A DNA stretch of 52,374 nucleotides from a virus, in the IMG/VR virus record IMGVR_UViG_3300045988_166745. The stretch is one strand, 5' to 3'. The translations under genes were made by a program, and so were the position numbers. Every line of letters starts with the position of its first letter. Positions within the stretch are counted from its first letter, which is position 1. Below the pieces are notes generated by a model. That model did not search any database and had not been told where the DNA came from. It saw only the letters and a program-made list of their open reading frames with translations. This document shows positions 12,377 through 43,194 of the stretch, in pieces.

Positions 12377-12589
12377 TTACTGATTTTCGGAATCTTCTCT
12401 ACACAGTTCATCCAGTGTAACACCGAGGGCAGTTGCAATACGGTTCAAATTCCCGATTGTGATATTTTCAAATTTGATGTAGTCGTTTTCGTAGTCGGTA
12501 ATTTTCTTATAGTGTACGCCGGAAAGAGCGGCTAACTCTTTTCGAGTAATGCCGTTCTGTTCCCGTATTCTCTTGATGTTATTCTGCAT
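12377..12589 (-). CDS. XRE-family helix-turn-helix protein, third gene of the hicAB locus
   Basis: MQNNIKRIREQNGITRKELAALSGVHYKKITDYEN… Overlaps the end of hicB by 11 nt. Confidence 0.8.
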   Translation of the reverse strand: MQNNIKRIREQNGITRKELAALSGVHYKKITDYENDYIKFENITIGNLNRIATALGVTLDELCREDSENQ

Positions 12590-12872
12590 TCGGCTCACAC
12601 TCCACGAGAGGATAATCGGTCGTATCACAAAGAATCAAGGTTGCAAAGCTGTCTGCATTTGTTTGAATTTCTTTGATCGGAGTAGCGACCGGAATTGGTT
12701 TCTTTTCCTTTTCTCTGAAACACAGCATCATTGCCAAGACATCAGATGCCATTTCCATTGCATTCACCAAAGAATTTCCGCACGTATAACAGTTTTCTAC
12801 ATCCGGAAAGTCAACCGAATAAGCGTTGTTTTTCTCTTTTGTGAAGATTGCAGGGTAAACGTATTTTGCCAT
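12579..12872 (-). CDS. hicB: HicB-family antitoxin (N-terminal domain only)
   Basis: MAKYVYPAIFTKEKNNAYSVDFPDVENCYTCGNSLVNAMEMASDVLAMML is a typical HicB fold signature. There is no C-terminal DNA-binding domain. Confidence 0.8.
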   Translation of the reverse strand: MAKYVYPAIFTKEKNNAYSVDFPDVENCYTCGNSLVNAMEMASDVLAMMLCFREKEKKPIPVATPIKEIQTNADSFATLILCDTTDYPLVECEPNAE

Positions 12873-12986
12873 TTTACCAGCTCCTTTTTGTTTTTGAATG
12901 GGGGTACAAATGCGGATTTGAAAAGTTGACAAGGAAAGCGAATGGTTCGCTTTCTTGCCATTTTGAAAACCCCGTAGGGTCGGGGC

Positions 12987-13172
12987 TTATTTCAGCCCCG
13001 CATCCTTCAGGATTTTGTTTGCGGTTCCGGTTGCGATTTCCTGTCCATCATGCCGCCCAACAGAAAATGCTGTTTCTGTTTTGGGGCTGTACCAGATTTC
13101 GTGGTTTCCGCCCTCTCGGATTTTGTAGCATCCGGCTTTGCGAAGTTTCTTTTTTAATTCGCCTGTCCGCAT
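12987..13172 (-). CDS. hicA: HicA-family mRNA interferase toxin
   Basis: 61 aa: MRTGELKKKLRKAGCYKIREGGNHEIWYSPKTETAFSVGRHDGQEIATGTANKILKDAGLK. Confidence 0.85.
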   Translation of the reverse strand: MRTGELKKKLRKAGCYKIREGGNHEIWYSPKTETAFSVGRHDGQEIATGTANKILKDAGLK

Positions 13173-14532: not shown

Positions 14533-14570
14533 AAAAAACGCTCTTGAATGTGGGGTTCAGGAGCGCTTTT
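14533..14570. terminator. Bidirectional terminator between the endolysin and the minus-strand island
   Basis: GCTCTTGAA-tgtgggg-TTCAGGAGC flanked by an A-run and a T-run. Confidence 0.7.
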
Positions 14571-14578
14571 GCTAAAAT

Positions 14579-15277
14579 TTAATTTGAAGATAGGTATAGT
14601 TTATTGTCGAAATATTCTTTCATACCGTCTAAAATTCCTTTAAGAAACAATGTGGTTTGTTCTTTGATATTATTTAAATCTTCAATTGTGTAATCTCTTC
14701 CGCATTCAACAAAAGATTGTGTACCATGTGCAAGATTATTTCTTTTTTCTTTAACATCATCCAATACAATGCCACCTTTGCAATTCGGATCAATATTGAA
14801 GGTGATTCCGTGTTCACGGCATACTTGCCGTATTTTCTTCGCATCTAGATTTCCACTAATATTTGTGGCTTTGCGATCAAGTATGAGTTTCTCTCCATGT
14901 AAAATAGAATTAATTATTCTTTCTGCTTTTTCTCTGTACGTATTATAATGTGCCTGTTTATCATATGCTTCGTTAAATTTAAATCTAAACCAAATTTTTT
15001 GAATTTCCTGTCGGACTTGTTGATATGTGATTCCTTCTTGTTGTAGTTCGTCATATATCTCTATAATACCGCCCATAATCGTTGATTCAACAAGGTTATA
15101 AATCATGAGTAACGCATTGGATTTCAATATTTTTAAAAAATCGCCATTAAAATACTTTTTGTTATATTTGTCATTATCTGATTTTAAAGTTTCATCTTCA
15201 TAAAGTGCGTTAAGTGCAGCGTAATATAAATCAATTTCTTGGATGCGTTCATTAAAAGTATCAATCGTTTCCTGCAT
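14579..15277 (-). CDS. HEPN-domain protein (MAE_28990/MAE_18760-like family)
   Basis: Start MQETIDTF after GGTGGTG. Rx4H motif in VKEKRNNLAHGTQ. ILKSNALLMIYNLVESTI is typical of this HEPN family. Overlaps the DUF262 gene by 17 nt. Confidence 0.7.
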   Translation of the reverse strand: MQETIDTFNERIQEIDLYYAALNALYEDETLKSDNDKYNKKYFNGDFLKILKSNALLMIYNLVESTIMGGIIEIYDELQQEGITYQQVRQEIQKIWFRFKFNEAYDKQAHYNTYREKAERIINSILHGEKLILDRKATNISGNLDAKKIRQVCREHGITFNIDPNCKGGIVLDDVKEKRNNLAHGTQSFVECGRDYTIEDLNNIKEQTTLFLKGILDGMKEYFDNKLYLSSN

Positions 15278-16313
15278 TTGTTTCACCACCCAATAGCATA
15301 TCACGAACATACTCCACACGTCCTGACACACGAGAAGGCGAATTACTTGCGTGGGTTGTAGTGTGCATTTTAAATTCTTCGCTGCCGAGCCACTCCATAG
15401 AACTAGGAATTAAACTTGGATTTTCCCTCAAAGCTAAACCTACTCCAACGGCAATTGCTTCAAACCGTACTCGTGGAGTTGATTTTGATGTTTTTGTCTT
15501 TTTGAAACCGTTTTCAAAATACTTATCTACAAAAGCCAGCATATTTTCGAATTCCATTTTAAACTTTTTTTGGTCAAAGCTATCCTTAACACTTTCTACA
15601 TAAGAGTCTAAAAATTCATCTACTCGATGATTAAAATTTTTGTAGTTATTTAAAAATGCGAAAAACCTTAACACCAATTCAAGGTCATCATATCGTTTTT
15701 TAGAAGTTTCACTTACTGGACACACTCTAATGAAAGTTGAATTTTTAGTACACTCTTTAAGGAAATCCATAAAAGGACCAGCATGACTACCACGACGAAT
15801 TTCACTTGGATTAGCACGAATACCAGTAGTATTAATTCTATTAAATATTTCTTGACGAATTTCAAGTGTAGTTTCATCTGATAATACAACTATTCGCATT
15901 GTAGTTTTATTGAATTTTCGTTTAAAGTATTCTGGTAAATCTGCATAGGTGAACCCATTTAGAGTAGTTAGCTTTTTTAGATCAGAGAGCTTAAGTTCAT
16001 TATTCATGAATTCTTCTAATGTCTGTGTACGTTGAGCACCATCTATTATCTCGCATCTCCCATCGTCAGCATCTGAAAAAAACATAAAAGGAATTGGAAG
16101 ACCTAATAGTATTGATTCAATGAAACGGTTTTTATTTTGGCTTTCCCATATATATTGTCGTTGATATTCATCAGGAATATAAAATTCATTTTCTCTATAT
16201 TGTTGAACCAAAAAGTCAATTGCGTAATCTCGTGTATCATAATCAATTTCTTTTCTTAATGCTTTTATTTGATTTTCAGCATTTTTTCGTTGCTCCGGTG
16301 TGATTGATTGCAT
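15261..16313 (-). CDS. DUF262 (ParB/GmrSD N-terminal-like) protein
   Basis: 350 aa. …YQRQYIWESQNKNRFIESILLGLPIPFMFF…IIDGAQRTQTLEEF (DGQQR-type motif). No DUF1524/HNH region is present. Confidence 0.8.
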   Translation of the reverse strand: MQSITPEQRKNAENQIKALRKEIDYDTRDYAIDFLVQQYRENEFYIPDEYQRQYIWESQNKNRFIESILLGLPIPFMFFSDADDGRCEIIDGAQRTQTLEEFMNNELKLSDLKKLTTLNGFTYADLPEYFKRKFNKTTMRIVVLSDETTLEIRQEIFNRINTTGIRANPSEIRRGSHAGPFMDFLKECTKNSTFIRVCPVSETSKKRYDDLELVLRFFAFLNNYKNFNHRVDEFLDSYVESVKDSFDQKKFKMEFENMLAFVDKYFENGFKKTKTSKSTPRVRFEAIAVGVGLALRENPSLIPSSMEWLGSEEFKMHTTTHASNSPSRVSGRVEYVRDMLLGGETNAGND

Positions 16314-16314
16314 A

Positions 16315-17364
16315 TTAATTTACCCCCATTTCATTAAGATGCTTTTGGATACTTATACCTATTGCTCTGCCTAATTCAACTGGTACAGCATTTCCAATGT
16401 GAACTCCCAATTCTCTTCTATTAAATGCCGATTCATTTTCTACAAATTTATAATTTGCAGGAAAGGATTGTAATAATGCTCCTTCTCTAAAGGATAAAGC
16501 TCTATGTTGTTCGGGATGACCAAACCGTCCATTCCCATAACCATAAAATTGCGTAGTTATTGTTGGAGAAGGTTCATCCCATTTCATTCGACCATATACA
16601 GCTCCATAACTTCTTCCGGTTTTCTTTTTATGACAACTTAATTGCAAATCATCACTCCAGTCCTTCCAAGTTCCACCGGGAATTGAACTACGTATTCTTT
16701 TCAAATTTATTTCAGACATTTTAGCAGTACAATGGATCACATCATTACGGTCACATTCTCCATCCGCTAATGGTGGAAGCTTGCCTATTGCATCTCTTAC
16801 AGTTAAATAATTAGATTCATTATGTGTTGGGGCAATTAAATTAATATCATTCAATTGTGAAGCCAACAATACAAGGCGTTTTCGACGTTGAGGGACTCCA
16901 TAATTGGGACAATAAACAATTTCCCAAGAGCAATGGTAATTAGACGCTTTAAGGTGGTTTATAAAATCGACAAAAACGGATTCCTTAATCAATTCTGGAA
17001 CGTTTTCCATTGATACAATTGTTGGCTGTATTCTGTCAATAAGATTTGAAAATGCGTATAATAGACGCCATTTATCATCCTTATGTCCTTCTTTTCGGTA
17101 GCGTTGAGTGTATTTTGAAAAAGGCTGACATGGAGCACAGCCAACTAGAATTCGTAAGTCATTGCTAGGGTATAGCGAAATCAGACTATCAGAATTAATA
17201 GTGTTAACATCTCCAGCAATGAACTGTGAATGGCTATTGGCTTCGTATGCATATCGACATGATTCATCAAGGTCAATGCCTGCAATTACATTTAATCCTG
17301 CTAATTCCAAACCTTTAGTTAAACCACCAATTCCGCAAAATAAATCTACAACAGAAGCCGGCAT
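16315..17364 (-). CDS. DNA (cytosine-5)-methyltransferase
   Basis: Motifs DLFCGIGG (I), GCAPCQPFS (IV), SMENVPEL (VI), VPQRRKRLVL (VIII), GNAVPV (X). Its stop is 1 nt from the DUF262 start. Confidence 0.9.
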   Translation of the reverse strand: MPASVVDLFCGIGGLTKGLELAGLNVIAGIDLDESCRYAYEANSHSQFIAGDVNTINSDSLISLYPSNDLRILVGCAPCQPFSKYTQRYRKEGHKDDKWRLLYAFSNLIDRIQPTIVSMENVPELIKESVFVDFINHLKASNYHCSWEIVYCPNYGVPQRRKRLVLLASQLNDINLIAPTHNESNYLTVRDAIGKLPPLADGECDRNDVIHCTAKMSEINLKRIRSSIPGGTWKDWSDDLQLSCHKKKTGRSYGAVYGRMKWDEPSPTITTQFYGYGNGRFGHPEQHRALSFREGALLQSFPANYKFVENESAFNRRELGVHIGNAVPVELGRAIGISIQKHLNEMGVN

Positions 17365-17379
17365 TGTTTATCCCCCCCC

Positions 17380-17595
17380 TTATTCTTCATCTTTCATGAA
17401 TAGAAGATACGTTTCGACTCCAAGTGCATCCGCTATTTTTTGAATGTTGTCTAAGGCTATGCTACGTTTACCACATTCAATAGCACTGATATATGTTCTA
17501 TGTAAGCCAGCCATATCAGCAAATTTTTCTTGAGATACTCCAAGTATCTTTCTGTATTTTCTAAGATTATGTGAAAATACCTGAATTGCATCCAT
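17380..17595 (-). CDS. Controller (C) protein-like XRE HTH regulator
   Basis: 71 aa. LGVSQEKFADMAGLHRTYISAIECGKRSIALDNIQKIADAL resembles R-M controller proteins. It is the first gene of the operon. Confidence 0.7.
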   Translation of the reverse strand: MDAIQVFSHNLRKYRKILGVSQEKFADMAGLHRTYISAIECGKRSIALDNIQKIADALGVETYLLFMKDEE

Positions 17596-17613
17596 GTGCA
17601 ACACCTCTTTTTT

Positions 17614-17642
17614 ATTATACCACATTGACTACAATAAGTCAA
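17614..17642 (-). promoter_or_regulatory. Consensus promoter of the C-M-DUF262-HEPN operon, with a C-box-like dyad
   Basis: The minus strand reads TTGACT-TATTGTAGTCAATGTGG-TATAAT. The palindrome TTGACTTATTGTAGTCAA has GACT…AGTC half-sites, and CTTATTGTA is directly repeated just upstream. Confidence 0.7.
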
Positions 17643-17783
17643 CATACAATAAGTAACAGTTGCGAAAATGAACCTCTGATCTATTCTTTTTTATTTTTGC
17701 TTATATCTTTTTGTTACAAACCATAAACTACACAAATTACCAAAAAGTCGTTTGTGTACTGTTACAAACATCTCCAAACTAGC

Positions 17784-18831: not shown

Positions 18832-20124
18832 GTGATACAAAAAGTTGTATTTCCGCAGAAAAAGCAGTTTCCATTGAAACGAACGGCAGCCTATGCCAGA
18901 GTATCCAGCGGAAAGGATGCCATGCTCCATTCGCTATCATCACAGGTCAGTTACTACAATCAGCTGATTCAGAGCAATCCAGAATGGCTGTTCTGCGGTG
19001 TTTATGCAGATGAGGCACTGACCGGAACAAAAGGAAACCGGGCAGAGTTTCAAAAGTTGCTGAACCGATGCAGACAGGGAGAAATTGACTTGATTCTGAC
19101 AAAGTCTATTTCTCGTTTTGCACGAAACACGGTTACCCTGCTGGAAACGGTACGGGAACTGAAATCGCTGGGCGTTGATGTCTATTTTGAGGAACAGCGG
19201 ATTCATTCCATGAGTTCAGACGGCGAACTGATGCTTTCCATTCTGGCATCCTATGCACAGGAGGAGAGTTATTCAGCCAGTGAAAATCGAAAATGGCAAA
19301 TCCGAAAGGATTTCTCAATCGGAAAAATCGGTAGTATTACGATTTTGGGCTATCGCAGAAATGCAGAGGGAGTCTTGGAAATCGAACCGAATGAGGCAGA
19401 ACTTGTTCGCATGATTTTCTCAGATTATATTTCCGGTATGGGACAACAGAGAATCGCAAATAAGATCAACGAGATGGGAATACCAACTCGACAAGGGAAC
19501 CTATGGACAAACCCAAGAATTCGTGAAATTCTGACAAATGAAAAATACATCGGAAATCTCATGCTCCAAAAGTACTATCGCAATAACCATATCGAAAAGA
19601 AAAAAACGAGAAATCAGGGAGAACTTCCGAAATATTATGTAGAGGAAGCCCACGAGCCAATTATTGACCTTGAAACGTTTGCCAAAGCACAGGCTATATT
19701 GGCTCAGCGACATGAGCAATACACCCATGATGGTGCTACAAACCGTTATCCGCTTAGTGGTCTTATTACCTGTGGATTATGCGGAAAGAACTATCAACGA
19801 AAACAACTCCCACAGGGAATCATCTGGATGTGTGCCACTTTCTTGAGGCGAGGAAAAAAGTACTGCCCCGGTTCAAAGCAAATTCCGGAATCAATTCTAT
19901 ATGCTCTAATCTGTGATGTACTTAAATTGGATGAATTTGATGCGGCTGTATTTCGAGATAACATTCATCACATTGTGATTCCGAAACCGTTTGAGGTGCA
20001 GTTTTTCTTTCACGATGGAACATCTGATATACGGCATTGGAAATACCCATCAAGGGCAGAAAGCTGGACAGAGGAAATGAAACAAGCCGCACGAGAAAGG
20101 AATCAGAAATGGGTCGAAAAGTAA
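18832..20124 (+). CDS. Large serine recombinase 1
   Basis: Resolvase catalytic domain (AAYARVSSGKD…DLILTKSISRFARN…ESYSASENRKW), a recombinase domain and a zinc-ribbon region (CGLCGKNY…). The GTG start is uncertain. Confidence 0.85.
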   Translation: MIQKVVFPQKKQFPLKRTAAYARVSSGKDAMLHSLSSQVSYYNQLIQSNPEWLFCGVYADEALTGTKGNRAEFQKLLNRCRQGEIDLILTKSISRFARNTVTLLETVRELKSLGVDVYFEEQRIHSMSSDGELMLSILASYAQEESYSASENRKWQIRKDFSIGKIGSITILGYRRNAEGVLEIEPNEAELVRMIFSDYISGMGQQRIANKINEMGIPTRQGNLWTNPRIREILTNEKYIGNLMLQKYYRNNHIEKKKTRNQGELPKYYVEEAHEPIIDLETFAKAQAILAQRHEQYTHDGATNRYPLSGLITCGLCGKNYQRKQLPQGIIWMCATFLRRGKKYCPGSKQIPESILYALICDVLKLDEFDAAVFRDNIHHIVIPKPFEVQFFFHDGTSDIRHWKYPSRAESWTEEMKQAARERNQKWVEK

Positions 20125-21686
20125 CTGTAATACCGCCAACAATCAGTCTACAAACGCACCAGCCGACAACACAGAAAGTAAGGCGAAAAGTTGCCGGATA
20201 TGCACGTGTTTCTACAGATTTTGAGGAGCAGCTCACTTCCTACGAGGCACAGGTCGATTATTATACCAAGTATATTCAAGAGCGTGAGGACTGGGAGTTT
20301 GTCAAAGTCTATACCGATGAGGGCATCAGTGCAACCAGCACAGTGCATCGTGATGGATTCAATCAGATGGTGGCAGACGCTCTGGACGGCAAAATCGATT
20401 TGATTGTCACCAAGTCAGTCAGCCGGTTTGCACGAAACACCGTAGATTCCTTGACTACGGTGCGAAAGCTGAAAGAAAAAGGCGTGGAGGTGTTTTTTGA
20501 AAAAGAGGACATTTACACGCTGGATTCCAAAGGTGAACTGTTGATCACCATTATGTCCAGTCTGGCACAGGAGGAGAGCCGTTCCATTTCGGAGAACGTC
20601 ACTTGGGGGCAGAGAAAGCGTTTTGCCGATGGGAAAGTAAGTCTACCATACAAGCATTTTCTGGGGTATCGAAAAGGAGCGGATGGCTTGCCGGAAATTG
20701 TGCCGGAGGAGGCAGAAACTGTTCGCAGTATTTATCGCTGGTTTATGGAGGGCATGACACCATATAAAATCGCTTGTATTTTGATTGAAAAAGGCATTCC
20801 GACACCATCTGGGAAGGAACAGTGGCATCTCAGTACGGTGAAAAGCATTCTGACCAATGAAAAATACAAGGGTTCTGCTCTGCTGCAAAAGAAATTTACT
20901 GTGGATTTTCTTACGAAAAAGACCAAAGTGAATGAGGGTGAAGTACCCCAATATTATGTGGAAGAGAGCCACCCTGCTATTATTCCACCTGAGGAATTTG
21001 AATTGGTGCAGGCGGAAATGGCAAGGAGAAAAGAACTGGGAAAACGCTATCACAGCGGCAATATATTCACAGCCAAAATCGTCTGTGGCGAGTGTGGCGG
21101 TTTTTACGGTCCTAAGATTTGGCACTCTAATAGCCGTTACAGACGTGTGATATGGCGATGCAACAAGAAATATACGAATGATTGTTATTGCAAAACGCCG
21201 CATATTGATGAGGATACGATAAAGCAAGGCTTTTTGAAAGCCTATAATCAGCTACTTACTGATAAAGGGAGCATTTTGAGTCTTTGCGAGATGTTGCTGC
21301 GTGCTTTTTCAGACTGTTCAGATTTGGATGCGAAAATGAGTGTTCTGGATGATGAGGAAAAGCAGATCACAAAAAACATAAGAGAAATGGTTGTGATCAA
21401 TAGTCGAACGGTTCAAAAGCAACCAGAATATACGCTGGAGTACCAATCCTATGAGCGGGAGTACGAGGCGTTGAAAGCAAAATATCAGAAATTGCAGGCT
21501 GAAAAATTAGATCGCATAAATAAAACCACTGTGATCCAAGATTTCATGGAGCAGATAAAAAAGAGAAAAGAGCCGATTAAGGTTTTCAGTTCGGACGTAT
21601 GGCTTGCTGCAATTGAAACAGTGACCATCTGTGAAAAGGGAGAATTGCAATTTCGGTTTAAAAACGGTACTGAAATAACAGTTTGA
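20109..21686 (+). CDS. Large serine recombinase 2
   Basis: Start ATG 20109 overlaps gene 1 by 16 nt. AGYARVSTDFEEQ…DLIVTKSVSRFARN…ESRSISENVTWG, CGECGGFY zinc ribbon and a C-terminal coiled coil. Confidence 0.9.
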   Translation: MGRKVTVIPPTISLQTHQPTTQKVRRKVAGYARVSTDFEEQLTSYEAQVDYYTKYIQEREDWEFVKVYTDEGISATSTVHRDGFNQMVADALDGKIDLIVTKSVSRFARNTVDSLTTVRKLKEKGVEVFFEKEDIYTLDSKGELLITIMSSLAQEESRSISENVTWGQRKRFADGKVSLPYKHFLGYRKGADGLPEIVPEEAETVRSIYRWFMEGMTPYKIACILIEKGIPTPSGKEQWHLSTVKSILTNEKYKGSALLQKKFTVDFLTKKTKVNEGEVPQYYVEESHPAIIPPEEFELVQAEMARRKELGKRYHSGNIFTAKIVCGECGGFYGPKIWHSNSRYRRVIWRCNKKYTNDCYCKTPHIDEDTIKQGFLKAYNQLLTDKGSILSLCEMLLRAFSDCSDLDAKMSVLDDEEKQITKNIREMVVINSRTVQKQPEYTLEYQSYEREYEALKAKYQKLQAEKLDRINKTTVIQDFMEQIKKRKEPIKVFSSDVWLAAIETVTICEKGELQFRFKNGTEITV

Positions 21687-40203: not shown

Positions 40204-41459
40204 CCACAACTACAGAATTTCAGCTTGTTGATATCAACAAGTTAGTACCCTATGCCAATAACGCCAGAACCCACAACAAGGAACAGATCCTGAAGCTTCG
40301 TTCTTCTCTGCGTGAGTTTGGTTTTGTGAATCCGGTGATTATCGACCGGGAATACAATGTGCTGGCTGGACATGGACGCATTATGGCGGCAAAGGAAGAA
40401 GGTATTGCAGAAGTACCCTGTGTGTATGCCGACCATCTGACGGAAGCACAGAAGAAAGCGTACATTCTTGCTGACAACCGGATGGCATTGGATGCCGGCT
40501 GGGACGAAGAACTGCTGTCCGTTGAAATGCAGGAGTTGCAGGAGCTCGGATTCGACCTTTCCATGACCGGATTTGATGAAAAGGAACTGACAGATCTGCT
40601 GGGTGCGGATGCAGATGGCGAGGCAAAAGAGGATGACTTCGACCTGTCCACCGCCTTAGAAAAGGCTGCATTTGTACAGCGTGGCGATGTATGGACAGTT
40701 GGCAGACACAAGCTGATGTGTGGCGATGCCACATCTGCGGAGGATGTATCTGCTCTCATGGGCGACACCAAGGCAAACCTCATTCTGACCGATCCCCCAT
40801 ATGGCGTTTCGTTCAAGAGTGCCAGCGGTCTGACCATACAGAATGACAGCATGAAGAACGAAGAATTTTATACATTCCTGCTGTCCTCCTTTCAGCGAAT
40901 GGCAGAACATCTGGAAAAAGGCGGTTCTGCCTATGTGTTCCATGCAGATACGGAAGGGCTGAATTTCAGAAAAGCTTTCATTGATGCCGGATTTCATCTT
41001 GCAGGCTGCTGCATCTGGGTAAAGGATAGTCTTGTTTTGGGTCGCTCTGATTATCAGTGGCAGCACGAACCTGTGTTGTACGGCTTTATGCAAAATGGTA
41101 AGCATCACTGGTATTCCGACCGCAAGCAGACAACCATCTGGCATTTTGACAAGCCGAAACGCAATGCCAACCACCCCACCTCCAAGCCGCTGGACTTGCT
41201 TGGCTATCCCATCGGCAATTCTACACAGGAAAATGGCGTGGTAATGGATACCTTTGGCGGCAGCGGCTCTACCCTTATGGCGTGTGAGCAGATGAACCGC
41301 ATTTGCTACACCATGGAACTGGATGAAAAATATGCCTCGGTGATTCTTCGCCGGTATGTGGAAGATACGGGAAATGCCGATGGTGTGTATGTTATTCGTG
41401 ACGGGGAGCAGATCGCATATTCTGAACTGGTGAAAGAGGTGGAAAAGCCTGATGAATAA
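40200..41459 (+). CDS. ParB-like nuclease domain fused to an N6-adenine/N4-cytosine DNA methyltransferase
   Basis: Start MTTTTEFQLVDINKLVPYANNARTH (ParB N-terminal-like). LILTDPPYG (motif IV) and DTFGGSGSTLMA (motif I) give a beta-class order. Confidence 0.85.
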   Translation: MTTTTEFQLVDINKLVPYANNARTHNKEQILKLRSSLREFGFVNPVIIDREYNVLAGHGRIMAAKEEGIAEVPCVYADHLTEAQKKAYILADNRMALDAGWDEELLSVEMQELQELGFDLSMTGFDEKELTDLLGADADGEAKEDDFDLSTALEKAAFVQRGDVWTVGRHKLMCGDATSAEDVSALMGDTKANLILTDPPYGVSFKSASGLTIQNDSMKNEEFYTFLLSSFQRMAEHLEKGGSAYVFHADTEGLNFRKAFIDAGFHLAGCCIWVKDSLVLGRSDYQWQHEPVLYGFMQNGKHHWYSDRKQTTIWHFDKPKRNANHPTSKPLDLLGYPIGNSTQENGVVMDTFGGSGSTLMACEQMNRICYTMELDEKYASVILRRYVEDTGNADGVYVIRDGEQIAYSELVKEVEKPDE

Positions 41460-43194
41460 ACCTCTCACCCTTGGCAGTCTTTTCGATGGTTCAGGAACAT
41501 TTCCAATGATGGCTATGCTTGCAGGTATTATGCCTGTCTGGAAATCAGAAATTGAACCTTTTCCTATCGCTGTAACCGAAAAGCGACTGCCGTTTGTAAA
41601 GCACCTTGGTGACATCAACAGCATCAACGGTGCAAAAATAGAGCCTGTAGATATTATCACTTTTGGCTCACCCTGTACCGACCTTTCGGTTGCAGGAAAA
41701 CGTCAGGGCTTGAATGCAGAGCGTTCAGGACTTTTCTTTCAGGCAATCAGAATCATCAAAGAAATGAGAGGTGCAACCAATGGAAAATACCCAAGATTCG
41801 CAGTGTGGGAAAACGTCACAGGTGCTTTCTCCTCAAATGGCGGAGAAGACTTCCGATGCGTCCTCGAAGAACTCTGCAAAATCAAAAACACCAACGTTTC
41901 TGTCCCTAAACCTGAAAAGTGGACAAAAGCAGGAAATATCATGGGAGATGATTTCTCTCTCGCTTGGCGTACATTCGATGCTCAGTACTGGGGTGTACCC
42001 CAGAGAAGAATGCGTATCTACCTTGTCGCAGATTTTGCAGGCGGATGTGCCTCAAAAATATTATTTGAGTCAGAAGGCGTGTCTGGGTATTCTGCGGAGA
42101 GCTTCTGTTCGTGGAAAGAAACTGCCGGAGGTTTTGGAACTTGCTCTGAAGAAACAAGCACAGGGTTAGTTTTTTCAAATCACGGGCAAGATACACGATT
42201 TAAGGGTCCTGTTGAAGTAGCGGAAACAGTTTCTGCTACATATGGAACGGGCGGAAATAATCAGCCGTTTGTGGTGGAATCATCAGTTGTTCCTGCAACG
42301 CTGAAAATACGATGTGGTCACGGAAATGGTGGACGTGGTGCTTTGATTCAGGAAAATAAATCCGCTACTCTTTCCTGCAATAACGACCAGACACTTTTCG
42401 TTCCCAAGGCATATGGTATTTGCGGAAAATACAGCAATTCCATGCTGAGTAATAATCCGAACAGCGGATTTTATGAAGCTGAAACTTCCAGAACCATTGA
42501 TACCAGCAATCAGTCACCGTGTAAAAATCAAGGAGGCATGGTTGTTGTAGAAGGAAACGGCTCACGTCCTTCACATCATGGTGACGGGTACAAGAAATCG
42601 GAAACCATGTACACGCTGAATTGCACGGAAAACCATGCAGTTTCTTACAGCATTGGCAGACCTGCCATGAATCAGAGTTACAATGCACGATTCAGTTTTC
42701 AGGTGGGAGAAGAAAAATCTCCGACACTTGTTGCGTCGGGGGCTGGCGGAATCGCTCATCCGAAATACTCTACAAGTAAAAATTCTCGCCATACTGTTGC
42801 TGAAAAGGAAAAAGCAAATACACTTGTGGCATCGGACTACAAAGACCCTCCGGTTGTCAACGACAGCACTCCTGAAATTGAATACATCGTAAGACGACTG
42901 ACACCGCAAGAGTGTGCGTTACTGCAAGGTATGCCGACTTGGTGGTGTGATGATATCGGTATTAAAAATCCGACCGAAGAACAGATTACTTGGTGGCAGA
43001 ATGTTTTTGAAACATACAACAAAGCTGTCGGTAAGATCTGCAAGCCGAAATCTCACAAGCAGATTGAAAAATGGCTGAAAAACCCATATTCCGACAGTGC
43101 AGCTTATAAAATGTGGGGAAATGGTATCGCAGCTTGCAATGCTTGGTTTGTGTTTGCCGGAATTGCTTACTATGCACAAAATGAAAGGGAATAA
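41452..43194 (+). CDS. DNA (cytosine-5)-methyltransferase with a large variable insert
   Basis: LFDGSGTF (I), GSPCTDLS (IV), WENVTG (VI), VPQRRMRIYLV (VIII), MWGNGIA (X). About 250 aa lie between motifs VIII and IX. Confidence 0.85.
   Translation: MNKPLTLGSLFDGSGTFPMMAMLAGIMPVWKSEIEPFPIAVTEKRLPFVKHLGDINSINGAKIEPVDIITFGSPCTDLSVAGKRQGLNAERSGLFFQAIRIIKEMRGATNGKYPRFAVWENVTGAFSSNGGEDFRCVLEELCKIKNTNVSVPKPEKWTKAGNIMGDDFSLAWRTFDAQYWGVPQRRMRIYLVADFAGGCASKILFESEGVSGYSAESFCSWKETAGGFGTCSEETSTGLVFSNHGQDTRFKGPVEVAETVSATYGTGGNNQPFVVESSVVPATLKIRCGHGNGGRGALIQENKSATLSCNNDQTLFVPKAYGICGKYSNSMLSNNPNSGFYEAETSRTIDTSNQSPCKNQGGMVVVEGNGSRPSHHGDGYKKSETMYTLNCTENHAVSYSIGRPAMNQSYNARFSFQVGEEKSPTLVASGAGGIAHPKYSTSKNSRHTVAEKEKANTLVASDYKDPPVVNDSTPEIEYIVRRLTPQECALLQGMPTWWCDDIGIKNPTEEQITWWQNVFETYNKAVGKICKPKSHKQIEKWLKNPYSDSAAYKMWGNGIAACNAWFVFAGIAYYAQNERE

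Follow-up and report, generated by a model that had tools for sequence, protein, structure and literature searches.

A stretch of viral DNA, IMG/VR record IMGVR_UViG_3300045988_166745 (52,374 nt, the whole of which is called the window below), was found to carry a cassette of four minus-strand genes encoding a controller (C) protein, a DNA cytosine-5 methyltransferase (M), a DUF262 protein, and a HEPN protein. In every related locus that could be scored, M is linked to the DUF262-HEPN pair, and the three proteins co-diverge. This universal linkage and co-divergence strongly support a functional link between M and the pair and, to judge from the sequence comparisons, M, DUF262, and HEPN are one co-inherited functional unit. 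The cassette is tentatively read here as a self-contained, horizontally mobile defence module that follows restriction-modification (R-M) logic with an unconventional "restriction" arm, a reading whose chances we put a little short of even. The four genes, in the order of transcription, are as follows, with E-values of the profile matches in brackets.

17380..17595, minus strand: C (controller) protein, 71 aa, with an XRE-type helix-turn-helix (HTH) domain (HTH_3, 5e-16; PADLOC Control_protein, 2e-22)
16315..17364, minus strand: DNA cytosine-5 methyltransferase M, 349 aa (PF00145 DNA_methylase, 2e-59; TIGR00675, 6e-40)
15261..16313, minus strand: DUF262 ParB-like nucleoside triphosphatase (NTPase) with an all-helical C-terminal domain (PF03235 GmrSD_N/DUF262, 7.5e-26, aa 35-176)
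14579..15277, minus strand: HEPN protein of the MAE_28990 family, 232 aa (PF18737, 1.1e-20 over the full length, 75 bits with a gathering cut-off of 26.8)

Linkage and Co-Divergence of M, DUF262, and HEPN

Conservation of the M-DUF262-HEPN order, which an earlier note on this DNA had proposed to survey, was examined in two collections. With HEPN as the anchor and one genome per species, 37 loci were recovered from GTDB, and 26 of these were testable, that is, they contained a full-length HEPN gene and at least 1.1 kb of upstream DNA. The three genes kept their order and shared one strand in all 26, with identities to the window proteins of 53-81% (M), 44-87% (DUF262), and 29-75% (HEPN), in genomes spanning Firmicutes, Zoogloeaceae, Planctomycetota, Deltaproteobacteria, and Bacteroidota. 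The other GTDB loci comprised five cassettes cut by contig ends and six truncated HEPN remnants. DUF262-HEPN was also present in Synergistales and Blastocatellia, on contigs that end just upstream of DUF262, where M is unscorable. The truncated HEPN genes (L025, L027, L029, L030, L033, and L037) have no adjoining DUF262 gene or orthologous methylase, and look like decayed remnants of the cassette.

A metagenome survey anchored on DUF262 returned 80 loci, 79 of them testable, and both partners, M and HEPN, were present on all 79 testable contigs. The GTDB and metagenome surveys together cover at least six phyla, and M orthologues shared 45-100% identity across all related loci with enough flanking DNA.

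Two further arrangements were observed, and both keep all three genes. The order is DUF262-HEPN-M in L101 (107-2857) and L102 (3956-6805), while M and the DUF262-HEPN pair face each other convergently in Moraxella phage Mcat31 and in P2-like prophages of E. coli. L102 had been considered as a methylase-less exception; this was ruled out, since M sits downstream of HEPN. The HEPN protein of the rearranged L101/L102 module is very divergent (24% identity), and its DUF262 protein is 65% identical.

Pairwise identities of the three proteins were found to correlate with r values of 0.82-0.86 (51 non-redundant trios), HEPN being the fastest-evolving of the three. Linkage that is universal, independent of gene order, and accompanied by co-divergence implies that the methylase is functionally required, and makes an independent passenger unlikely. 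The best-conserved part of M consists of the C-terminal part of the target-recognition region and motif IX, a pattern of conservation that suggests one conserved specificity. Orthologues of C (70-90% identity) were present in roughly a third to a half of the related loci, and the C protein is an optional add-on to the trio.

Properties of the Core Proteins

The four domain assignments made in the earlier note were upheld by profile searches, and the motifs it had listed (DLFCGIGG, PCQPFS, ENV, QRRKR, GNAVP, DGAQRTQTL, and RNNLAHG) were all found in the translations. All catalytic motifs are present in M, which matches the PADLOC DrmMII/MTase_II models at 1e-88 to 1e-94; that DrmMII is its best PADLOC match carries no information on the target motif.

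The best PADLOC match of the DUF262 protein is NsnA (3e-67, aa 15-339, near full length). The protein also matches PD-T4-2_A (1e-40) and, weakly, the "REase_II" model PDLC03418 (1.5e-13), and the SspE and HEC-05/06 models align to only ~30-65 of its N-terminal residues. Four motifs, EYQRQYIW, DGAQR, PRVRFEA, and HTTTHASNS, are invariant in the DUF262 homologues, and the first and second of these are predicted from sequence to form the pocket in which a protein of the ParB/DUF262 fold binds nucleoside triphosphate (NTP). Conservation is extreme in the C-terminal half. KSTPRVRFEA and HTTTHASNS (aa 277-325) are near-invariant, carry no Pfam annotation, and lie inside a confidently modelled helical domain; they are candidates for a surface that reads DNA or 5-methylcytosine (m5C).

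AlphaFold2 modelling gave predicted local distance difference test (pLDDT) scores of 75 for HEPN and 61 for DUF262, the latter model being confident just for the C-terminal domain (pLDDT 80-97). This domain is all-helical in the model, without the beta-beta-alpha fold of HNH and DUF1524 nucleases, and Pfam gave no match of any kind past aa 176. The predicted architecture of the protein is a ParB-DUF262 domain followed by a helical NsnA-C/ParBDB-like domain, which would make it a sensor of DNA or of its modification; the helical DNA-binding domain termed "ParBDB" was described by Li et al. 2025.

The HEPN protein matches RiboL-PSP-HEPN at 1.9e-5, under the gathering score. Its RNNLAHG motif (R179-x4-H184) was invariant in 20 homologues, and was kept across the 51 non-redundant trios. 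By analogy with its family, the protein is predicted to be the effector nuclease, probably an RNase. HEPN was the sole nuclease domain that Pfam revealed within or next to the operon, in agreement with the earlier statement that no PD-(D/E)XK, HNH, or DUF1524 open reading frame (ORF) lies there. Likewise, no restriction endonuclease of a known DNase fold (PD-(D/E)XK, HNH, GIY-YIG, or PLD) was found by Pfam, NCBIfam, or PADLOC, leaving aside the weak DUF262-type "REase_II" match. Fold searches were uninformative: Foldseek comparison of the HEPN and DUF262 models with the PDB gave no match at E < 0.5, and profile searches of PDB sequences returned nothing for either protein.

Defence Context, Partner Exchange, and a Frameshifted Methylase

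In five loci that lack C, namely L010 (2415-4869), L011, L017, L019, and L031, a Vsr mismatch endonuclease gene lies immediately upstream of M, and genes for a second m5C methylase and a DUF4928 protein (2.6e-53) come before it. The DUF4928/m5C/Vsr genes and the trio may form a composite R-M island, and the presence of Vsr speaks for a resident genome in which methylation is stable over the long term. In two Firmicutes loci that likewise lack C, L014 (49-4855) and L016 (108-4871), the trio directly follows a LlaJI-type set, consisting of an m5C methylase, a McrB-like AAA_5 protein, and RE_LlaJI. These upstream neighbours argue for an R-M or defence-island context.

The E. coli trio has the portal gene on one side and the replication-endonuclease gene on the other, a site known in P2 as a hotspot that harbours tin, old, and numerous validated defence systems. 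Compared with the copies in phage P2_4B2, the window DUF262 and HEPN proteins are 40% and 29% identical, respectively, and the window M is 51% identical to an intact orthologue in Escherichia phage PhiR44_1 (PV340563, L124 1876-4924). In PhiR44_1, also at the P2 hotspot, the orthologous M is accompanied by a paraMORC3 protein that replaces DUF262 and HEPN, and that gives a match of 2e-91 to the PADLOC REase_II models. The paraMORC3 proteins are a family of GHKL ATPases, some of which can have a nuclease domain of restriction endonuclease (REase) fold at the C terminus. This pairing indicates that the M family exchanges "restriction" partners as R-M methylases do.

A link to a more distant branch is provided by Akkermansia phage Chambord (ON453894, L129 1875-4685), where an m5C methylase, a DUF262 protein, and a HEPN protein are arranged as in the window. 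The Chambord methylase belongs to a different m5C family (24% identity to the window M), its DUF262 protein matches PD-T4-2_A at 3e-47, and its 178-aa RiboL-PSP HEPN protein weakly matches PD-T4-2_B (4e-4). The design of methylase, DUF262, and HEPN thus recurs with non-orthologous methylases, and extends to the branch resembling the anti-phage system PD-T4-2. A defence role of the cassette is likely, given its PD-T4-2-like core pair, the location of the E. coli trio in the P2 hotspot, and the R-M systems beside other relatives.

In one E. coli P2-like lineage, represented by three complete genomes and phage P2_4B2, M is frameshifted at a run of eight G residues (G8), AAACCGGGGGGGGACATGG, and the gene is labelled "frameshifted" by the Prokaryotic Genome Annotation Pipeline. 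Examples are L125 (2337-2404; Peduovirus P24B2, LR595873) and L126 (5395-6440; E. coli 2015C-4136CT1). Intact M alleles, such as that of L127, read AAACCAGGAGGGACATGG and are without the G8 run. The G8 tract is present in strains 181.1, 2015C-4136CT1, and 2023CK-01509, and M is intact in, for example, strains 1002W03 and JNE120442. The frameshift could represent phase variation, decay, or a sequencing artefact. A CCWGG target, for which the host Dcm would cross-protect this lineage, was considered and is unsupported; the NCBIfam Dcm model matches only aa 5-124 of M.

Operon Organization and Regulatory Sites

The four ORFs, C, M, DUF262, and HEPN, span 14579-17595 on the minus strand (ORF list). 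C and M are separated by 15 nt, and M and DUF262 by 1 nt, whereas DUF262 and HEPN overlap by 17 nt; the ORFs, the 1-nt gap, and the 17-nt overlap given earlier were all reproduced. A Shine-Dalgarno sequence, AGAGGTG, precedes the ATG of the C gene. Three regulatory features flank the genes.

17614..17642, minus strand: promoter of sigma-70 type, TTGACT-17 nt-TATAAT, with an extended TG, the sole 11/12 match in the region
17630..17655, minus strand: putative operator (C-box) made up of two direct repeats of 11 bp each, TACTTATTGTA and GACTTATTGTA, with a period of 15 bp
14539..14565, either strand: bidirectional intrinsic terminator common to the operon and the convergent endolysin gene

The promoter is the one that the earlier note had proposed, and its position and hexamers are kept upstream of the C gene in homologous loci. 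The promoter-proximal copy of the C-box overlaps the -35 hexamer, and the 11-mer occurs just twice in the 52-kb window, both times at the operon promoter. Where C is present, in L001-L006, L015, L020, and L032, a tandem repeat of GAC(T/G)TATTGTA (x2) is kept. The GACT...AGTC dyad to which the earlier note had drawn attention does occur in the window promoter (TTGACT TATTGT AGTCAA); as a conserved operator it was ruled out, since TATTC replaces TAGTC in most homologous loci, and it is the tandem direct repeat that is conserved instead. The C-box over the -35 hexamer of a strong promoter suggests autorepression after an initial burst, and the C protein probably autorepresses the operon; the placement of an operator over the -35 hexamer of a near-consensus promoter points to repression alone.

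The terminator hairpin is bordered by A6 on one side and by a T-rich tract on the other, and the minus-strand RNA folds with a free energy of -19.7 kcal/mol (z -6.9) followed by U6. The hairpin can therefore serve both the endolysin gene and the operon, as had been claimed. The G+C content of the cassette, 34.0%, is the lowest of any 3-kb window in the 52 kb (mean 45.4%, standard deviation 3.4%), compared with 48.9% for the endolysin gene, so that the 37 versus 52% counted by hand earlier was approximately correct. The low G+C content is consistent with recent horizontal acquisition.

The Phage Genome and Its Other Accessory Genes

The window resembles a temperate phage, encoding a tape-measure protein, an M15+GH25 endolysin, two serine recombinases, a D5-type primase, and a second m5C methylase. 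The operon is flanked by the endolysin gene, an HTH protein gene, and the two serine recombinase genes, and its description as one operon-like unit at the lysis/integrase moron position of a temperate-phage genome is supported. The recombinase genes (18832-21686, plus strand), immediately past the cassette, encode two tandem overlapping large serine recombinases of 430 and 549 aa, with Resolvase, Recombinase, and Zn_ribbon_recom domains.

Just upstream of the endolysin gene, on the minus strand, lie genes for a HicA toxin (12987-13172; PF07927, 1.5e-15) and a HicB-like antitoxin (12579-12932; 1.2e-10), followed by a small XRE HTH gene (12377-12628). HicA/HicB is a second accessory module, of the toxin-antitoxin kind, in the same moron region. 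The second C-5 cytosine methyltransferase (41452-43194, plus strand, 580 aa) matches PF00145 at 5.5e-35 in its N-terminal half only; its position is unrelated to that of the cassette, and it may serve on its own as an anti-restriction methylase.

In IMG/VR, six contigs carry the cassette, four of them identical to the window copy. Records of the identical DUF262 protein exist for 463 contigs, under a name taken from a Ruminococcus metagenome-assembled genome. A nucleotide search of an isolated-phage database revealed no close relative of the cassette. It resides mainly on chromosomes or other mobile elements, and is not typically phage-borne.

Relation to Known Systems

A MAE_28990 HEPN/ParB/DNA methylase operon was listed by Anantharaman, Makarova, Burroughs, Koonin, and Aravind 2013 (Biol Direct 8:15, Table 1). 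It consists of exactly the three core genes of the cassette, whose HEPN, DUF262, and methylase components were all identified here, and the neighbourhood that the earlier note had attributed to that paper is indeed present in Table 1. The same note had allowed that its proposal would fall if the architecture proved to be an already named, characterised system; this is partly the case, in that the three genes are in Table 1. The NCBI pipeline already assigns names to these proteins. The 2013 entry is one table line based on comparative genomics, includes no experiment, and mentions neither the C protein nor carriage by phages nor the fact that the methylase is orthologous and co-diverges with its partners.

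An experimental precedent, contrary to the earlier remark that no experimental characterisation was known, is PD-T4-2 ("DUF262, HEPN"), which was selected on T4 from E. coli ECOR65 (Vassallo et al. 2022, PMC9519451). The system was cloned and found to protect against T4, and its deletion in native ECOR65 sensitised the strain to this phage (PMC9519451). PD-T4-2 resembles the cassette in its two-gene DUF262 and HEPN composition, and the window DUF262 protein matches PD-T4-2_A. As NsnA is the better match, it is a homologue of PD-T4-2_A but less clearly an orthologue. PD-T4-2B has HEPN_RiboL-PSP and HEPN_MAE_28990 as its best HHsearch matches (PMC9519451). The window HEPN protein did not match the PADLOC PD-T4-2_B model at E <= 0.1, so that kinship exists only at the level of the Pfam clan (MAE_28990/RiboL-PSP). 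PD-T4-2 differs further in being active without a methylase or C, and the PD-T4-2_B model has 168 positions, compared with 232 aa for the window HEPN protein. By sequence comparison, the window pair appears to be a relative, not an orthologue, of PD-T4-2.

Menshen (NsnABC) shares the NsnA architecture of the window DUF262 protein. However, NsnB is an ABC ATPase (AAA_15 + DUF3696) encoded directly downstream of NsnA, where the window has the 232-aa HEPN protein, and neither an NsnB-type ATPase nor an NsnC inPIN-effector gene was found in or beside the operon. Identity with Menshen was ruled out, NsnB and NsnC being absent, with methylase and HEPN in their place.

SspABCD-SspE and Dnd (DndB) provide a different likeness, namely a DUF262/ParB-type protein coupled genetically to enzymes that mark self DNA. 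SspE senses this mark through its DUF262 domain, and its NTPase is stimulated by host phosphorothioate (PMC12065111, PMC10952713). The mark in these systems is phosphorothioate rather than m5C, SspE has its own DUF1524 nicking nuclease, and DndB is a regulator. The linkage of DUF262 to a methylase had earlier been called paradoxical; the paradox dissolves, as DndB and SspE are DUF262/ParB modules that already partner self-modification systems (PMC12065111, PMC10952713). The N-terminal DUF262 NTPase domain, with QR and DGxQR motifs, is common to GmrSD and BrxU. Unlike these type IV enzymes, which attack modified DNA, the cassette has no DUF1524 His-Me nuclease, encodes a separate HEPN effector, and is linked to a methylase. 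Identity with GmrSD, BrxU, or SspE was ruled out by the absence of DUF1524.

C-controlled type II R-M systems, such as Esp1396I, PvuII, and AhdI, also resemble the cassette, in that an XRE-type C protein, with a repeated operator at its own promoter, is followed by an m5C methylase. They differ from it in that the cassette encodes no recognisable REase fold, its operator is a tandem direct repeat placed over the -35 hexamer, and its methylase is in one transcript with the putative toxic genes. In the absence of a DNase fold, the cassette is not a demonstrable type II R-M system. In PrrC-EcoPrrI, as in the cassette, a HEPN nuclease with an NTPase partner is embedded among DNA-modification genes, but PrrC fuses an ABC NTPase to HEPN and relies on a complete type I R-M enzyme. 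A mechanistic study of the methylase, DUF262, and HEPN combination, or of PD-T4-2, was not found in the literature.

Proposed Mechanism and Alternatives

Under R-M logic, the m5C methyltransferase would mark host and prophage DNA at one conserved target, and the DUF262-ParBDB protein would be the sensor that reads the modification state of DNA. When the sensor encounters unmarked phage or plasmid DNA, the translationally coupled HEPN protein would act as the effector nuclease and, if family precedent holds, would cut RNA, leading to growth arrest or abortive infection (Abi) rather than to DNA cleavage. In a newly entered cell, C would bind the tandem repeats over the -35 hexamer, and shut the strong promoter after the entry burst. 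Four elements of this scheme are inferred: a protective rather than a licensing role for methylation, m5C as the mark sensed by DUF262, RNase activity for HEPN, and a repressor role for C. This logic is favoured since the C protein, Vsr, and partner swapping fit it, since DUF262 proteins are modification sensors, and since SspE and DndB are precedents. It is conceivable, if rather doubtful, that the cassette represents a class of R-M without a DNA endonuclease, in which DUF262 reads m5C at the target and gates the HEPN RNase, giving methylation-gated Abi, with PD-T4-2 as a methylase-less offshoot that responds to phage cytosine modifications.

Several observations weigh against R-M logic. If unmethylated self DNA were strictly lethal, the E. 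coli lineage with the frameshifted M should not persist, and its DUF262 (DGSQR) and HEPN (RNDLAHG) proteins are intact. Its persistence could be reconciled with R-M through a cross-protecting methylase, slippage that restores some M, or a recurrent homopolymer sequencing error. Strains carrying PD-T4-2 cloned without a methylase grew and were protected against T4, and no toxicity was reported (PMC9519451). No mechanism that would delay the toxic arm is visible in the single operon of C, M, DUF262, and HEPN, and coupling HEPN to DNA methylation would need a hypothetical signal-transduction step, as no DNase fold was detected and HEPN proteins are typically RNases. The target of M was not assignable from its PDB relatives (the DNMT1 C-terminal region, M.HaeIII, and M.HhaI), which are too distant and, with no significant PDB neighbour, the HEPN and ParB fold assignments come from sequence profiles only.

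Some of these observations would be accommodated if methylation licensed the system, in a manner like that of SspE: m5C on resident DNA would activate DUF262 and arm HEPN, and the pair would be inert without the methylase. Such licensing, which we consider unlikely, would explain both the universal linkage of the methylase and the tolerated frameshift lineage; SspE and DndB are precedents for DUF262 coupled to self-modification, and C-protein control and Vsr are compatible with licensing as well as with R-M. PD-T4-2 is, however, protective without a methylase, though the modified cytosines of T4 could supply the ligand, and there is no obvious means by which a licensed system would discriminate invader from self DNA. 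A quite improbable scheme is one in which DUF262-HEPN, like a type IV enzyme, senses foreign hypermodified DNA containing 5-hydroxymethylcytosine (hmC), glucosyl-hmC, or the like, in the manner of GmrSD and BrxU and as the action of PD-T4-2 on T4 would suggest, and the methylase is an independent passenger with an anti-restriction or epigenetic role. Modification-dependent enzymes use DUF262 as their sensor, T4 was the phage on which PD-T4-2 was selected, a frameshifted methylase is tolerated, and the second m5C methylase of the window (41452-43194) indicates that phage methylases can stand alone. Yet a passenger would not remain linked in more than 100 loci and three gene orders while co-diverging with r 0.82-0.86, the more distant branch has taken up an m5C methylase of another family in the equivalent position, and translational coupling and C control unite all of the genes.

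Very little probability is assigned to a guard arrangement like that of PrrC, in which a latent HEPN RNase is held by the methylase and/or DUF262, and is freed by phage attack or titration as a second line of Abi. Anantharaman et al. proposed such logic for HEPN genes in R-M loci, by analogy with PrrC-EcoPrrI. The NTPase partner parallels the ABC NTPase domain of PrrC, and HEPN is the fastest-evolving protein of the trio. The cassette has, however, no first-line restriction enzyme to guard, PD-T4-2 functions without a methylase, and type II m5C methylases are not known to have phage inhibitors. It is also very improbable that the cassette is a conventional type II R-M system with a cryptic DNase, DUF262, HEPN, or both cutting unmethylated DNA at or near the target. 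The C-M-R-like gene layout, the match to PDLC03418 noted above, and the label "ParB nuclease" used by Anantharaman et al. would be in keeping with a DNase, but the nuclease of GmrSD, BrxU, and SspE is DUF1524, which is absent here, and their DUF262 is an NTPase and sensor. HEPN Rx4-6H enzymes, moreover, are metal-independent RNases, and an intact DNase beside a frameshifted methylase would be lethal.

R-M logic with an unconventional effector remains the preferred reading, and the defence module inferred in the earlier note survives in part: its domains, its operon unit, a likely role in defence, and the link to the methylase hold, while its paradox and its statement on experimental characterisation are unsupported or overstated. 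Addiction-like behaviour, or strict R-M lethality, is weakened by the growth of PD-T4-2 strains without a methylase, and by the intact DUF262 and HEPN genes of the frameshifted lineage.

Significance

The three-gene kind was already known from comparative genomics in 2013, and its DUF262 and HEPN core has a validated anti-phage relative in PD-T4-2. The analysis adds how strongly the methylase is linked to the pair, the C-box, the association with Vsr and the swapping of partners, and the E. coli alleles, among them a natural variant whose methylase is off. An orthologous m5C methylase accompanies DUF262 and HEPN at hundreds of loci in at least six phyla, among them loci of human-gut Firmicutes phages and of P2-like prophages of E. 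coli. The E. coli alleles with intact and G8-frameshifted methylases are ready-made genetic controls, which make the mechanism directly testable. If the methylase proved dispensable, the cassette would be a PD-T4-2-like system plus a passenger methylase. If, on the other hand, methylation gates a HEPN RNase through a ParB-like NTPase, the self-marking of R-M systems would be joined to the RNases of Abi systems, and such gating would also account for this recurrent gene neighbourhood.

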